A DNA stretch of 32,000 nt from Deinococcus radiodurans R1 = ATCC 13939 = DSM 20539 (GCF_000008565.1 NC_001263.1:1820603-1852602), one strand, 5' to 3'; positions 1 to 30,850 are shown, counted from the stretch's first letter. The notes: generated from the letters alone by a model not told the origin. Translations and numbers: made by a program.

Positions 1-447
1 AATCACCAGCCCACGCGGCGCCACGAACAGCGCGTCGGGCAGCTTCAGTTCATCGGGGTTGGCGTCGGGCAGCTTTTCGTAGGCGCGGATGATGTCGTAG
101 GCCGCGTACCCCACTGCGCCGCCTACCAGCGCAGGCAATCCGGCGGGCACGTCCAGCGGGCGGGTCGTGACGCGGTAGAGCCGGGCGAGCGGGTCGGCTT
201 CCTCGCCGTCGAAGTCACCGAATTGCCCGCTGCTCTGCACCCGTCCGGCGCAGGCGCGAAACGTGCCCTGCTCGCCCACGCCGATAAACGAGTAGCGCCC
301 CAGCTTTTCGCCCGCTTCCACGCTTTCGAGCAAGAACGACACCGTTTCTCCCTGTGCGGCCTTGAGGTAAGCGGTGACGGGCGTGTCGAGGTCGGCATTG
401 AGTTCATGGACGGCGAGACAGGTCGGGTGGGCAGAGGTCTGGGACAT
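1..447 (-). CDS. trpE: Anthranilate synthase component I (TrpE), N-terminal ~149 codons; gene continues past the left edge of the window
   Basis: Absent from the ORF track because there is no stop inside the window. Hand translation from ATG 447..445 gives MSQTSAHPTCLAVHELNADLDTPVTAYLKAAQGETVSFLLESVEAGEKLGRYSFIGVG... This is the LESVE-x-G-x3-GRYSFIG region typical of TrpE/PabB chorismate-utilising enzymes. AAGGAG lies 8 nt upstream of the ATG. The Trp-codon leader upstream favours TrpE over PabB. Confidence 0.85.
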   Translation of the reverse strand, partial: MSQTSAHPTCLAVHELNADLDTPVTAYLKAAQGETVSFLLESVEAGEKLGRYSFIGVGEQGTFRACAGRVQSSGQFGDFDGEEADPLARLYRVTTRPLDVPAGLPALVGGAVGYAAYDIIRAYEKLPDANPDELKLPDALFVAPRGLVI

Positions 448-476
448 GGGCAGGACTCCTTATGGACTGAGCGGGG

Positions 477-513
477 CACAACAAAACGCCCCGGGCGCGG
501 AAAGCCGGGGCGT
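477..513 (-). terminator. Intrinsic terminator / attenuator hairpin in the trpE leader
   Basis: Minus strand: ACGCCCCGG (513..505), 10-nt loop, CCGGGGCGU (494..486), then UUUGUUGUG. It lies between the Trp-codon mini-ORF and the trpE Shine-Dalgarno. Confidence 0.6.
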
Positions 514-538
514 GTGCGGAGATAAGAAAACGCGGCAC

Positions 539-586
539 TCAGACCCAGCGGGAGCGGGGCCACCACGAAGTGCGGCGGGTCAACAT
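539..586 (-). CDS. trpL: Candidate trp leader peptide, 15 aa: MLTRRTSWWPRSRWV
   Basis: ATG 586..584 to TGA 541..539. Tandem TGG TGG at 565..560 and a third TGG at 547..545. No SD, but TACCTT (598..593) lies 6 nt upstream of the ATG. A terminator follows 25 nt downstream, then trpE. Confidence 0.5.
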   Translation of the reverse strand: MLTRRTSWWPRSRWV

Positions 587-643
587 GAGGGGAAGGTAGC
601 GCGGGGAAGGGCGGCGGCGGGCGGGGTGTCTAGCAGAGGTCGC

Positions 644-1294
644 TTAGCGCAGCGCCACCCAGCCCAGCGCCAGCAGCAGCGCGGCACCGATGCCCAGCAC
701 GCTCAGGGCCTGCACGCGGGTCTTTTTCAGGAACAGCAGCACGCCGATGCCGGTGAGGGCCACCACCGTCAGAAACACGCCGCTGAGGTCAATCACCCAT
801 TTCCACGCGCCGGGGGCGTCGCGGCCCTTGTGCAGGTCGTTGAGAACCGCTACCGCGCCCTGTTGCTGGATGTCCACCGTATACTTGCCGGTCTGCGTGT
901 CGATGACTGCGTCGGCGCTGTAGCCGGGGGCCAGAAAGGACACGCTCGCCTCGGTGCCGTCCACCCGGGGGCTGTCGGCGTGCCCGTGCAGGTTTTGCTG
1001 CTCACGGAGGGCCTCGGCGGTGGTGAGCCAGTTGACCTCGCCGCCCTTGATCCAGCCGCCCGGCAGCGTGCCCGTCACCTTCTGCTCGACTTCCTGCGTG
1101 CCGAACACCCAATCGGGATGGTTGAGGGTCACGCCGCTCAGCGCAAAAAACAGCACCGCAAGCAGGCTGATCATGGAGGTGTAGGTGTGCAGCCAGCGCA
1201 GCCACTTGTTCGCCTGCGCCTTAGCATTGGGGGCCTTAGCGTTGGGGCGGCGGGCCGGGGCCACGTCCCGCTCAGGCCTTGCCGAAGCTGACAT
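644..1294 (-). CDS. PepSY-associated TM-helix membrane protein
   Basis: 216-aa ORF. The N-terminal KWLRWLHTYTSMISLLAVLFFALSGVTLNHPDW segment is typical of PepSY_TM-type proteins. A second hydrophobic helix lies at the C-terminus. It overlaps the upstream DUF2271 gene, consistent with one operon. Confidence 0.7.
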   Translation of the reverse strand: MSASARPERDVAPARRPNAKAPNAKAQANKWLRWLHTYTSMISLLAVLFFALSGVTLNHPDWVFGTQEVEQKVTGTLPGGWIKGGEVNWLTTAEALREQQNLHGHADSPRVDGTEASVSFLAPGYSADAVIDTQTGKYTVDIQQQGAVAVLNDLHKGRDAPGAWKWVIDLSGVFLTVVALTGIGVLLFLKKTRVQALSVLGIGAALLLALGWVALR

Positions 1295-1862
1295 TCACGG
1301 CCTCGATGTCGCCGTCGGCCCCCAGGCTCTTTTTGAAGGCGCTCGTTCCGACGCTCACCTTCTGGCGCACCAGCCCGTAGGGACCATGCTCGCGGCCCGA
1401 CTCGACGCAGACATAGTAGTCGCCCTGCGGCGCGAGTGCGTTCTTGTCGGTTTTGCCGTCCCAGGCGACCGCGTAGGTGCCGGGGTTACGGGTGGCGCTG
1501 CTCACCGTGCTCACGAGCTGGCCGTTGTCGCGGGTCCAGCGGCGCAGACTTTCTTCGAGCCAGCGCGGGTTCAGGCGGCGCTGCTGTACCCACACCGTCA
1601 GGGTGCGGACGGTTTTGCCGCTCTCGTCCTCGATCCAGACCGCCACAAAGGGGCGCTTAACTCGCCCACTGGCTTTGGTCGCCACGCTGAACTGAATATC
1701 GAGCTGCATGCCGCTGGCCCAGGCTTTGCTGCTGGTCGCGGCCTCCGCCAGCGCGCCGGGCACCACGCGCGAGGCGCCGAGCGCGGCGGCAGCGACGGCG
1801 AGCTTGCCGAGAAAGGAACGGCGGGTCTGTTGGACTTCGGGGGCAGTTTCGTTTCTGGTCAT
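1272..1862 (-). CDS. Tat-exported DUF2271-like protein, candidate flavinylated partner of ApbE
   Basis: 196-aa ORF with twin-arginine signal TRRSFLGKLAVAAAALGA. It lies between the ApbE and PepSY_TM genes. An internal VSSATR motif resembles the S-G-A-T type FMN attachment site. Confidence 0.65.
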   Translation of the reverse strand: MTRNETAPEVQQTRRSFLGKLAVAAAALGASRVVPGALAEAATSSKAWASGMQLDIQFSVATKASGRVKRPFVAVWIEDESGKTVRTLTVWVQQRRLNPRWLEESLRRWTRDNGQLVSTVSSATRNPGTYAVAWDGKTDKNALAPQGDYYVCVESGREHGPYGLVRQKVSVGTSAFKKSLGADGDIEAVNVSFGKA

Positions 1863-17652: not shown

Positions 17653-18722
<1,070 letters not shown>

Positions 18723-21430: not shown

Positions 21431-21562
21431 CACTCCAACAGTACGCAGCGAGGCAGGCAAAAGTTCCGCTTCCCCCGCGAGGACAGGTCAACAGTCAAGG
21501 GGGGATGAACACGACCTAGACGCCTCCCCCTCTCCCCTGCCCGCCGGGTCTACACTCCGGGC

Positions 21563-21640
21563 ATGACGGTTCAGCGCGCGCCCCTGTGCCCCCACTGCGG
21601 CGAGTTCGGCTTTTATTGGTTCGGTTCCCACCGGGCCTAG
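21563..21640 (+). CDS. Candidate aromatic-amino-acid leader peptide, 25 aa: [25 protein letters not shown]
   Basis: ATG 21563 to TAG 21638..21640. Codons 21605..21622 read TTC GGC TTT TAT TGG TTC (F G F Y W F). There is no SD. TACACT (21551..21556) lies 6 nt upstream of the ATG. A terminator and the DAHP synthase gene follow. Confidence 0.5.
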
Positions 21641-21660
21641 CCTCGCGCTGTTTTTCCCCG

Positions 21661-21702
21661 CCCGGTGACGCCCCGCAAAGGCTCGCCGGGTTTTTCTTTT
21701 TT
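21661..21702 (+). terminator. Intrinsic terminator (attenuator) upstream of the DAHP synthase gene
   Basis: CCCGGTGA (21661..21668) pairs with TCGCCGGG (21683..21690), 8 bp, plus an inner GCC/GGC extension. TTTTTCTTTTTT follows at 21691..21702. There is no upstream plus-strand gene to terminate. Confidence 0.7.
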
Positions 21703-21741
21703 CCCCAGCTAAATAACCCAGATAAAAAAGGACGTGTTCCC

Positions 21742-22827
21742 ATGACCCAGCCCCCCGCCCCCTCTACCACCGAAAACCTCAACGTGACCGGCTTCACGCC
21801 GCTGATGACCCCGCGTGAACTCAAGGCCGAGGTGCCGCTGACCGACGCTGCCGAGCGCACCGTGCTCGCCGGACGCCGGGCGGCGCAGGCCATCCTGAGC
21901 GGCGAGGACGACCGCCTACTGGTGGTTGTCGGGCCGTGCAGCATTCACGACCAGGCGCAAGCGCTGGAGTACGCCGGGCGGCTCGCGGCGCTGCGTGAGC
22001 GGGTGAAAGACCGGCTGGAAGTGCAGATGCGCGTCTACGTGGACAAACCGCGCACGACGGTGGGCTGGCGCGGCTACCTGCTCGACCCCGACATGGACGG
22101 CAGCAACGACATGGGCAAGGGCGTGCGCCGCACCCGCGAGCTGATGGTGGCGGTGAGCGAACTCGGGCTGCCGGTGGCGACCGAACTGCTTGACCCCTTC
22201 GCGCCGCAGTACCTCTTCGACGCCGTAGCCTGGGCCTGCCTGGGCGCGCGCACCGCCGAGTCGCAGACCCACCGGGTAATGGCGAGCGCCGTCAGTGCCC
22301 CGATGGGCTTCAAGAACGGCACCGGCGGCGGTATCAAGCTCGCGGTGGACGCGGTGGTGGCCGCCAGTCACCCGCACGCTTTTTTCACCATTGACGAAGA
22401 TGGGCGCGCCGCGATTGTCCACACCAAGGGCAACGCGCACGGGCACGTCATTTTGCGCGGCGGGCGTGCCGGCCCCAACTACGCCCCGCAGTTCGTGCAG
22501 GAAGCAGCAGACCTGCTGCGCGCGGCGGGCCGCGAAGAAGCCGTCATGGTGGACTGCTCGCACGCCAACTCGGGGTCGGACTGGACCCGGCAGCGCTTGG
22601 TGTGGCGCGACGTGCTGGGCCAGCGCCTCGCCGGACAGCGCGCCATCCGGGGCGCCATGCTGGAGAGCAACCTGCAAGCCGGCAAACAGAGCCTGCCTGC
22701 CGACCTCACGCAGCTCAAGCCCGGCGTGAGCGTCACCGACGCCTGCGTGGGCTGGGACGAAACCGAGGCCCTGCTGCTGGAGGCCCACGAACAGCTCAGT
22801 GGCCGCGCGGCACTGGCGACCTGCTGA
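21742..22827 (+). CDS. aroG: 3-deoxy-7-phosphoheptulonate (DAHP) synthase, class I (AroF/G/H type); feedback specificity unknown
   Basis: Starts [33 protein letters not shown] and contains [24 protein letters not shown] and DCSHANS. Start at ATG 21742 preceded by AAGGA. Confidence 0.9.
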
Positions 22828-28614: not shown

Positions 28615-29517
28615 TCAGTCCTCGGCAGCCTTCAACTCAAACCCCCGCTTCGTTTCGTGCAGCGTCGCAAACGCCACTTTCGGGTCGTGCGGCGTGCAGA
28701 TGACGGCGCCTTCCCCGAACCACTGCGGCAGGTACTTTTTGCGCTGCTCCAGGCAGGTGACGGGGTACAGGTCGTAGCCCATGACGTAGGGATAGGGTGC
28801 GTGGGCGGTGGTGGGCACGAGGTCGGCGACGTACACCAGCGTCTGCCCGCCCGAGCGCAGCACCACGCCCTGCTGCCCGAGGTTGTGGCCCGGCAGCGGC
28901 AGCACGCTCAGGCCTGGCAGCAGCTCGGTTTCGCCGTCTACGAGATCGAAGAGGCCGGCTTCGTGAATGGGCATGAAGGTGTCGGCGATGTAGCTCGCCC
29001 GGCTGCGTTCGTGAGTGTGCAGGGCGTCGTGCCACTCCTGCTTTTGCACCACGTAGCGGGCGTTGGGAAAGGTCGGCTCGCCGGTCAGGCCAGTGTTGCG
29101 CCCGCAGTGGTCGAAGTGGAGGTGGGTGTTGATGACGAGGTCAATGTCGTCGGGCTCCACCCCCACGTCGCGCAGACCCCGAAAAAACGTTTCGTCGCGT
29201 TCGAGCGCGTACATCTGCTCGAACTTCTCGCCGCCCCGGTCCCACATGCCGGTTTCCACCAGCACGTTCTTGCCGCCGAGCCGAATCAGCAGAGGGTTGA
29301 TGCGCAATTGAATGCGGTTTTCCTCGTCCGGAGGTGCCACTTTTTCCCACAGCACGCGGGGAATGGTGCCGAACATCGCGCCGCCGTCGAGCCGGAAGTT
29401 GCCGTCGGTGAGCGAGAACACCTCGGCCTCGCCAATCTGCCGCCGTTTGAGCCAGGTCATGAGGGCCACTTTACCGCGCTGCGGAGCGTGAGCCAAACGA
29501 ACGTTTGTTCTGGTCAT
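28615..29517 (-). CDS. MBL-fold metallo-hydrolase (lactonase-like)
   Basis: Contains the HLHFDHCG metallo-beta-lactamase motif and FRLDGGAMFG near the N-terminus. An alternative start is ATG 29460 (MTWLKRRQIG). Confidence 0.8.
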   Translation of the reverse strand: MTRTNVRLAHAPQRGKVALMTWLKRRQIGEAEVFSLTDGNFRLDGGAMFGTIPRVLWEKVAPPDEENRIQLRINPLLIRLGGKNVLVETGMWDRGGEKFEQMYALERDETFFRGLRDVGVEPDDIDLVINTHLHFDHCGRNTGLTGEPTFPNARYVVQKQEWHDALHTHERSRASYIADTFMPIHEAGLFDLVDGETELLPGLSVLPLPGHNLGQQGVVLRSGGQTLVYVADLVPTTAHAPYPYVMGYDLYPVTCLEQRKKYLPQWFGEGAVICTPHDPKVAFATLHETKRGFELKAAED

Positions 29518-29587
29518 GCCGAACCCTAATGCTCTGCCCGGCGCGGCTCACCTGAGCGGGGCGGGGGCTGCGCAGACTGGCAGTCCG

Positions 29588-30850
29588 ATGAAGACCCGGA
29601 TTGCTGGCAAAACCATTCTCGCCATCGTGCTGGCCGGGGGGCGCGGCAGCCGCCTCTCGCCGCTGACCGACGAGCGGGCCAAACCGGCGGTGCCGTTTCT
29701 GGGCACCTACCGCCTGATCGATTTCACCCTTTCCAACCTCGTTCACAGCGGCATCAACGACGTGTGGGTCATCGAGCAGTACCTGCCGCACGGCCTGAAC
29801 GACCACCTCTCGGGCGGGCGCCCCTGGGACCTCGACCGCACACGCGGCGGGCTGGTGGTGATGCCGCCCTTCGCGAGCGCCGAGAACGAGGAAGGCGAGT
29901 TCGCGCAGGGCAACGCGCACGCCCTGGCGCAGCACGCGCACCTCATCCGCGAGTTCGGCGCCGACTTGGTGCTGGTCCTGAGCGCCGACCATGTGTACCG
30001 CCTAGACTACTCGGACGTGATCCGGCAGCATGTGGAGCGCGGCGCGAGCGTGACGATGGTCACGACGGAGCTGGCAGACGAACAGCAGGCCACCCGCTTC
30101 GGCAACGTCCGTGCGGCGAAGAATGGCAAGGTCAGCGAGTTCGCCTACAAACCCGACGAGCCGCTCGGCAAGACCGTAACCGCCGAAGTCTTCGTGTACG
30201 ACGCGCACATCATGCTTTCCACGCTGGAAGCCCTGTCAAAAGAGGGCGAGCTGGGCGACTACGGCGAGGAGCTGCTGCCCGCGCTGGTGGCCCGTGGTGA
30301 CGCCCACGCCTTTCCCATGCACGGTTACTGGATGGACGTGGGCACGCTGGACGCTTACTTGCAAACCCACCGCGATTTTCTGGACGGCAAAGGCTTTGCG
30401 CTCGACGACCCGCAGTGGCCCTTCATCACTTCCAGCATCAGCCGCCCGCCGACCCGGATCGAGAAGACCGCCCGGCTGGACGAGGCGTTGGTCTGCGGCG
30501 GCGCGGTGATCGCCGGGGAAGTCGTGCGGAGCCTGATTGCCCCGAACGCGGTGGTGGAAGCGGGCGCCGTGGTCCGCGACTCGGTGGTGCAGCCGGGTGC
30601 CGTGATTCGCGCCGGGGCACAGGTGAGCCGCGCGGTGGTGGACCAGGACGCCGAAGTCGGCCCGGGCTCGCGCGTGGGCGGACAGACCGGCAACAGCCGC
30701 CCCACCGTGGTCGGCGCCCATGCCCACCTGGGTCCCGGCGTGCAGGTCGGCCCCGGTCAGGTGGTGGCCCCGCGCACCCGCGTGAAGGCAGGCGAGGAGG
30801 GGCAGAAGGTGCAGGAGCTGGACGCGGACGACAAGGCGGGGAAAAAGTAG
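29588..30850 (+). CDS. glgC: Glucose-1-phosphate adenylyltransferase
   Basis: ILAIVLAGGRGSRLSPLTDERAKPAVPFLGTYRLIDFTLSNLVHSGI matches the GlgC N-terminal signature. A left-handed beta-helix C-terminal part is present. Start at ATG 29588 within the track ORF. Confidence 0.85.
   Translation: MKTRIAGKTILAIVLAGGRGSRLSPLTDERAKPAVPFLGTYRLIDFTLSNLVHSGINDVWVIEQYLPHGLNDHLSGGRPWDLDRTRGGLVVMPPFASAENEEGEFAQGNAHALAQHAHLIREFGADLVLVLSADHVYRLDYSDVIRQHVERGASVTMVTTELADEQQATRFGNVRAAKNGKVSEFAYKPDEPLGKTVTAEVFVYDAHIMLSTLEALSKEGELGDYGEELLPALVARGDAHAFPMHGYWMDVGTLDAYLQTHRDFLDGKGFALDDPQWPFITSSISRPPTRIEKTARLDEALVCGGAVIAGEVVRSLIAPNAVVEAGAVVRDSVVQPGAVIRAGAQVSRAVVDQDAEVGPGSRVGGQTGNSRPTVVGAHAHLGPGVQVGPGQVVAPRTRVKAGEEGQKVQELDADDKAGKK

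Follow-up and report, generated by a model that had tools for sequence, protein, structure and literature searches.

A predicted ribosome-mediated tryptophan attenuator on a leaderless transcript precedes trpE in Deinococcus radiodurans and is conserved across Deinococcus

In Deinococcus radiodurans R1, the spacer between a PepSY_TM gene and trpE contains a Trp-rich mini-ORF and a GC-rich hairpin, which raises the question of whether this stretch controls trpE in response to tryptophan or simply ends transcription of the upstream operon. An initial annotation had read it as a ribosome-mediated trp attenuator on a leaderless leader transcript. Here, we analyzed a 32,000-nt window (NC_001263.1:1820603-1852602, i.e., the whole stretch of DNA under study, with positions counted from its first letter) together with the corresponding trpE upstream regions of related genomes. 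The attenuator reading is supported by conservation, by constrained folds, by covariation in two alternative helices (2:3 and 3:4; see below), and by linkage to trpE. Judged from sequence comparison, the trpE leader of D. radiodurans is very probably (probability of about 0.86) a transcription attenuator of the classical leader-peptide type, operated by a ribosome that translates a leaderless transcript.

All elements of the leader lie on the minus strand, and rereading that strand over 447–644 confirmed every leader coordinate of the initial annotation, including those of the mini-ORF, its Trp codons, the hairpin and its tail, the distance to the trpE ribosome-binding site, and the flanking PepSY stop and trpE ATG. 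The PepSY_TM gene, which is co-directional with trpE, has its stop at 644. A −10 promoter box of the TAnnnT type, TACCTT (593–598), is located 6 nt 5′ of the leader AUG, and the 6-nt spacer between the box (598–593) and the ATG (586–584) reads CCCCTC. The trpL-like leader ORF (539–586) encodes MLTRRTSWWPRSRWV in 15 codons plus a stop (ATG TTG ACC CGC CGC ACT TCG TGG TGG CCC CGC TCC CGC TGG GTC TGA). Nothing GGAG-like lies 5′ of its ATG, which agrees with the earlier statement that the mini-ORF has no Shine-Dalgarno (SD) sequence. The tandem Trp codons, UGG UGG (560–565), form the proposed sensing site, a third TGG is at 547–545, and the stop codon TGA (541–539) ends the ORF 92 nt before the trpE ATG.

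An intrinsic terminator hairpin (ACGCCCCGG/CCGGGGCGU; 486–513; approximately −18.7 kcal/mol) begins 25 nt past the ORF stop. Its 9-bp GC stem pairs ACGCCCCGG (513–505) with CCGGGGCGT (494–486) and is followed by the U-rich tail UUUGUUGUG (477–485; TTTGTTGTG in the DNA), which offers UUUU if the paired U486 is counted; relatives mostly have U5–U8 at this position. A further 15 nt separate the tail from the trpE SD sequence AAGGAG (461–456). With its SD sequence, trpE occupies 1–461 (minus strand; ATG 447–445) and runs off the window after the first 149 codons. The 149 N-terminal residues match Pfam Anth_synt_I_N (5.5e-30), i.e., anthranilate synthase component I. On the basis of the folds described below, the leader can be divided into four segments: region 1 (554–577), the 5′ half of the protector (1:2) hairpin, which includes the Trp codons; region 2 (531–549), which comprises the third Trp codon, the stop, and the next nucleotides and can pair with region 1 or region 3; region 3 (504–517), made up of the terminator 5′ arm (513–504) and 4 nt upstream, the antiterminator partner of region 2; and region 4, the partner of region 3 in the terminator.

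Taken by itself, the single sequence provides weak evidence for a trp attenuator, suggestive but not compelling. Tandem Trp codons occur in 3 of the 166 ATG mini-ORFs of 8–30 codons in the whole window (~2%), the whole-leader fold has a z-score of −2.0, and a terminator scan that picks up the trpE-leader hairpin gives a count of 3 versus 2.3 ± 2.0 for shuffles, i.e., no excess. The two other WW mini-ORFs were taken as chance occurrences: the one at 30720–30785 lies inside a longer ORF (29516–30850), and no combination of a TAnnnT box with a downstream terminator was found for the one at 18625–18717. Neither is among the window mini-ORFs with both of these features. A covariance model of the leader (R1) found no second copy within the window. 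Searches against Rfam gave no match in 300–900 at E ≤ 10 and none relevant at the gathering score in the whole window, which rules out a T-box, a Trp_leader, or a known riboswitch and places the trpE leader outside the sequence family of the enterobacterial trpL RNA (Rfam Trp_leader). Because no Rfam family matches, a curated model is unable to confirm membership. The significance of the element therefore derives from the conservation of its architecture in 37/37 Deinococcus/Thermaceae trpE upstream regions.

To assess this conservation, the TrpE N-terminus was used as a query against species-representative genomes, which yielded 40 trpE loci (36 from Deinococcus/Deinococcaceae, 1 from Thermaceae, 2 from Trueperaceae, and 1 from Planctomycetota). 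All 37 Deinococcus/Thermaceae loci have an ORF of 11–16 codons that contains WW or WWW followed by P (S instead of P in L005), begins 118–205 nt 5′ of trpE, and encodes peptides such as MTVNGAWWWPSFAWV and MKSVRAWWWPRFPG, and in all 37 the W-rich mini-ORF is accompanied by the hairpin and the TAnnnT box. The three distant loci (two Trueperaceae and one Planctomycetota) lack a Trp-rich leader ORF. Alignment of 38 leader sequences left as invariant columns the T, A, and final T of TAnnnT, the ATG, and UGGUGG, and nothing else. The box stands 6 nt from the ATG in 27 sequences (window included) and 7 nt in 11, so the spacing that had been likened to leaderless Deinococcus promoters is kept throughout the alignment, and none of the 38 aligned leaders has an SD sequence before the AUG. 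Three consecutive UGG codons are present in 31 of the 38 sequences (the D. radiodurans window copy has two), and the stop codon falls within region 2 in every one. Each leader thus combines a short ORF carrying at least two adjacent Trp codons just 5′ of a Trp-biosynthesis gene with a predicted intrinsic terminator, i.e., a conserved helix and U tract, between this ORF and trpE. A −10 box and AUG set at a fixed spacing, in-frame UGG UGG, and a stop within region 2, all of them invariant, are what a translational sensor would require, and the predicted Trp attenuator design is conserved across Deinococcus and one Thermaceae genome. A leader peptide and attenuator were reportedly described upstream of trpE in Thermus thermophilus in 1988; our literature searches returned nothing usable on a Thermus trpE attenuator, nor on an IS next to trpE.

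We found that the leader is predicted to form mutually exclusive structures (1:2 plus 3:4 versus 2:3), an outcome for which folding had been suggested as a check in the initial annotation. The unconstrained minimum free energy (MFE) fold of each leader consists of the 1:2 hairpin and the 3:4 terminator, the former being predicted for virtually every one of the 38 sequences. In the window leader, 577–554 is paired with 549–531, and the previously proposed pairing of 561–554 with 549–542 appears within this fold. The stalled state was modeled by masking the nucleotides under a ribosome with the second Trp codon in the A site and folding the nascent RNA to the terminator loop. With the ribosome masked on the W codons, the 2:3 antiterminator forms in 38/38 sequences (10–15 bp; −14 to −27 kcal/mol); moving the ribosome to the stop codon places region 2 under the footprint, and the folds that are left are weak (−1.7 to −10.2 kcal/mol). 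The window antiterminator (549–544:509–504, 541–540:512–511, and 538–535:517–514) has 12 bp and an energy of −14.8 kcal/mol. Its first segment is a pairing that the initial annotation had anticipated and had considered weak by eye, a judgment that the computed fold does not sustain, since the antiterminator occupies 8 of the 10 nt of the terminator 5′ arm (504–513). The predicted 2:3 pairing is exclusive with both the terminator and the protector hairpin (1:2) that holds the regulatory codons.

The positions of the codons relative to these helices also fit a ribosome-based switch. Assuming a ribosome footprint of +12 nt from the A site, a ribosome with its A site at W8/W9 extends to ~553–550, and region 2 starts at 549; with 13–16 nt between the Trp codons and region 2, a ribosome stalled on the second Trp codon is a borderline fit. 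Because the stop codon (541–539) sits inside region 2, the geometry implies that a terminating ribosome would cover this region. One MFE fold of the full read-through leader pairs the region 2 segment UCUGAGUG (543–536) with CGCUCAG (472–465), downstream of the terminator, and GCUCC with the trpE SD sequence (GGAGU, 454–458), the pairings spanning 536–554 versus 465–472/454–458. The long-range pairing of region 2 with 472–465 is probably a chance occurrence, the complementary segment being absent from the leader of the closest relative (L001).

Constraint at the RNA level was assessed in an alignment of regions 2, 3, and 4 that was anchored only on the region 2 GGG and the terminator, because covariance-model realignment left a 1-nt loop-length shift in 12 sequences. 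Among 34 distinct sequences, the 2:3 core is 89% paired (slid controls, 31–68%), with compensatory changes at 4 of 9 pairs; the 3:4 terminator is 94% paired in the anchored alignment, with compensatory changes at 5 of 11 pairs. Helix 1:2 is 77–78% paired, which is an underestimate owing to the 1-nt register problem in 12 sequences, and its pair 56:65 exchanges AU/GC/CG. The terminator helix of the alifold consensus shows compensatory changes as well; in the raw MAFFT alignment, RNAalifold detected no helix besides this one and a trivial one of 3 bp. Further controls, which overstate independence because the sequences are phylogenetically related, showed that own partners surpassed permuted partners in 2000/2000 permutations for 1:2, 2:3, and 3:4 each and that the 2:3 duplex averages −20.1 kcal/mol versus −14.0 kcal/mol once region 2 is dinucleotide-shuffled (mean z = −2.1). 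On its own, the window copy of this duplex does not significantly outdo its shuffles (z = −1.6; 14/200). The permutation, shuffle, and covariation tests all point in the same direction.

Coordinated changes in three segments can be read directly from individual leaders, namely CCUAGG/CCUAGG in L014 and L015, UUUUCUGGG/CCCAGGAAC/GUUCC in L034–L036, and CCCCGGG/CCCGGGG in the Thermaceae locus (L037). In CCCAGG, the A bulges out of the terminator helix but pairs with U in the antiterminator. The leader peptide itself varies freely at its N-terminal residues, and the portion beginning with the Trp run is conserved as nucleotide sequence: immediately 3′ of this run, the codon is CCC in 35, CCU in 2, UCC in 1, and CCG in none of the 38 sequences, and CCG accounts for 46% of Pro codons in the window genes. 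Given the CCC-biased codon and the nucleotide-level conservation, base pairing between regions 1 and 2 accounts best for the conserved peptide tail, better than a function of the peptide.

These observations can be assembled into the following model. Transcription would start at the AUG (586) or 1 nt before it, from the TACCTT −10 box; the transcript would therefore be leaderless, and a ribosome would load on the 5′ AUG once it has emerged. When Trp-tRNA is ample, the ribosome would pass UGG UGG, reach the UGA (541–539), and cover region 2 (549–531), and after its release region 2 would re-pair with region 1. Region 3 would be free either way and would pair with region 4, so that the terminator (513–486 plus the U tail) would form and transcription would stop ~30 nt short of the trpE ATG. 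Scarcity of charged tRNA-Trp would instead stall the ribosome at codons 8–9, with region 1 masked and region 2 left free; region 2 would then capture the terminator 5′ arm ahead of the synthesis of region 4, and RNA polymerase would enter trpE. The sequence elements, their conservation and covariation, and the predicted exclusive folds are what the analysis shows; from these we infer where transcription of the D. radiodurans leader begins, that its ORF is translated, and that read-through depends on Trp.

Could the hairpin instead be only the intrinsic terminator of the upstream ApbE/DUF2271/PepSY operon, with the Trp mini-ORF a chance product of a GC-rich spacer? The initial annotation had named the simple PepSY terminator as a counter-reading, and the PepSY stop indeed lies 130 nt 5′ of the hairpin on the same strand, the stretch between the two containing no further terminator; in addition, WW arises by chance in 2% of the window mini-ORFs. 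However, the mini-ORF, terminator, and −10 box precede trpE in 37/37 loci, whereas PepSY/DUF2271/ApbE genes are upstream in 3/37. The identity and orientation of the upstream gene, determined by tblastn and Pfam, vary widely: co-directional neighbors elsewhere encode LigA, an SNF2 helicase, GlgB, or an ABC permease, and divergent ones encode an OYE flavoprotein or DsbD-like, holin-like, or MscS proteins. Divergent neighbors, which are unable to use the hairpin, occur in at least four lineages. Because the upstream gene differs in 34/37 loci, the hairpin belongs to trpE, and covariation backs an alternative pairing that a plain terminator would not need. An upstream-operon terminator with a chance ORF is consequently the least probable of the explanations considered. 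In D. radiodurans, the hairpin may additionally stop PepSY read-through, which is compatible with attenuation and not a rival to it.

A premature terminator under the control of something other than a ribosome, i.e., a T-box/tRNA, a TRAP-like RNA-binding protein, or a Trp riboswitch, with the ORF incidental, is very improbable as well. T-boxes occur outside Firmicutes, and translation of the leader ORF is deduced here from its design, which would leave room for such a sensor; yet no T-box or other Rfam family is detected at E ≤ 10 or at gathering thresholds, the transcribed leader (586 to ~477) of ~110 nt seems too short for a T-box, and the trpE leader contains no (G/U)AG repeat array. Moreover, all 38 sequences retain the fixed spacing of AUG and −10 box, the in-frame UGG UGG, and a stop in region 2, a pattern needed by a translational sensor. 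More deserving of weight, although still unlikely, is the idea that the attenuator family is real and the D. radiodurans copy is decaying or weakly functional, leaving trpE effectively constitutive or otherwise regulated. No other copy in the set is as weak as that of the window: its covariance-model score (61.7 bits) is the lowest but one among intact copies, it has WW instead of WWW and an interrupted U tract, and its antiterminator is not individually significant; moreover, three sequenced R1 chromosomes tolerate an IS in region 2. Against decay, every part of the window copy is intact and in register, 1:2, 2:3, and 3:4 are all predicted, and the closest relatives (L001 and L002) share this variant, with WW and with CCCCGG in region 3, and their pairing partners are changed to match. 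A ribosome-mediated attenuator that serves trpE thus remains the preferred reading for D. radiodurans.

The insertion just mentioned is found in three other D. radiodurans chromosomes (CP150840.1, CP031500.1, and CP050116.1), where a 1177-bp IS1-family element lies inside the trp leader ORF (L041:4321–5497, likewise in L042 and L043); the window represents the intact, IS-free allele. On these three chromosomes the DUF2271 protein (window 1272–1862) is present with 100% identical flanking DNA, and trpE is annotated as Chorismate_bind (L041–L043). The 8-bp target site CGCTGGGT (543–550, minus strand), in region 2, is duplicated in the IS-bearing assemblies, the terminal inverted repeats begin GGTAGTTGGCTGGAA, and the 365-aa transposase matches NF033558 (5.4e-19) and is encoded in the same direction as trpE. 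With the insertion, the terminator and trpE are cut off from the promoter and the Trp codons, and the leader ORF grows to 25 codons. The IS in the leader may explain why a 2020 survey failed to find TrpL upstream of trpE in R1.

The window also contains a candidate for a second, aromatic-codon attenuator upstream of a class I DAHP synthase gene (21742–22827). At 21551–21703 on the plus strand, TACACT is followed after 6 nt by an ATG (21563) that opens a leader of 25 codons with the aromatic cluster F-G-F-Y-W-F, and a strong GC-rich terminator with a long U run lies between this ORF and the DAHP synthase gene, an arrangement of the leaderless type. With the ribosome modeled on F14–Y17, CACCGGGC pairs with the terminator 5′ arm GCCCGGUG at −17 to −20 kcal/mol. 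As to the trpE promoter, TAGACAC occurs on the minus strand of the window at ~625–632, ~28 nt upstream of the −10 box. A (T)AGAC(A/C)-like motif is present ~28–32 nt 5′ of the −10 box in several leaders without a TTGxxx −35 element (L018–L020, L023, L025, and L027); leaders of other species have TTGAGC 17–18 nt upstream of the −10 box instead.

The trpE attenuator is not new as a prediction, although the initial annotation knew of no account of it in Deinococcus. In D. deserti, a putative Trp leader peptide of trpEGD on a leaderless transcript is one of 14 predicted leader-peptide attenuators (de Groot 2014, PMC4007540), and dRNA-seq placed its transcription start site 1 nt before the start codon (PMC4007540). 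D. radiodurans is among 16 species with TrpL attenuators predicted by Merino, Jensen, and Yanofsky in 2008, as reported by Pokorzynski 2020 (PMC7755916), and Deinococcus is listed among the taxa with similar trp attenuators (Melior 2021, PMC7968998). The D. deserti system and the one described here share the genus, a downstream gene of the trpE family, and a Trp leader peptide on a leaderless transcript, and orthology of the two leaders is suggested by the genus-wide conservation. They differ in operon structure: it is trpEGD in D. deserti, but in D. radiodurans trpGD forms an operon by itself, preceded by the leader MSARTLRLIWWPRLT, which has no RBS (PMC7755916 Supplementary Data). This trpGD leader, located outside the window, has WWPR like the trpE leader; since trpGD has its own leader, D. 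radiodurans probably contains two separate Trp attenuators. In the main text of the D. deserti paper, as far as we consulted it, the attenuator is presented without analysis of alternative structures or covariation (PMC4007540), and our literature search found no experiment on Trp-dependent read-through in Deinococcus.

Comparison with better-known systems shows which parts of the design are shared. Like E. coli trpL (Yanofsky 1981), the leader has an ORF of 14–15 codons, tandem Trp codons, the 1:2/2:3/3:4 logic, a stop codon that adjoins region 2, and an intrinsic terminator just before trpE. There is no sequence or covariance-model similarity between the two (no Rfam match at E ≤ 10), and unlike E. 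coli trpL, the Deinococcus leader ORF has no SD sequence and starts at the transcript 5′ end. We know of no reliance on a canonical intrinsic terminator, of the kind seen in the trpE leader, among the mycobacterial polycysteine short ORFs. In the parts of the literature consulted, those ORFs resemble the trpE leader in their leaderless start at the 5′ end and in sensing an amino acid by codon runs, with the difference that they sense cysteine and the trpE leader tryptophan (10.1101/834739; PMC4633059). Among actinobacteria, the Streptomyces trpE leader MFAHSTRNWWWTAHPAAH (PMC7755916 Supplementary Data) combines a high-GC genome of the Gram-positive type, a WWW run, and trpE attenuation in an independent lineage, and experiments on trpE attenuation in Corynebacterium glutamicum and S. 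venezuelae are cited in PMC4833913. In Sinorhizobium meliloti, trpL likewise attenuates trpE(G) from just upstream and encodes a WWW leader (PMC7968998, PMC7298713); its terminated RNA and peptide (rnTrpL/peTrpL) have documented trans functions, and there is no such indication here.

By analogy, it is a long shot that the ~105-nt terminated leader RNA and/or the WW(W)P peptide act in trans like Sinorhizobium rnTrpL/peTrpL or that the IS1 insertion uncouples trpE from Trp control. If the former were true, a Deinococcus Trp-status signal would be coupled to other targets; if the latter, laboratory lineages would differ in Trp regulation. For the attenuator itself, the conceptual gain is small, since it follows the textbook trp design. 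Exact coordinates and a tested four-segment model are now at hand for the D. radiodurans trpE leader, and its predicted design is leaderless, conserved across Deinococcus and one Thermaceae genome, and shaped at the RNA level. If it works as proposed, the leader would provide a compact native Trp-responsive control element usable for engineering D. radiodurans.
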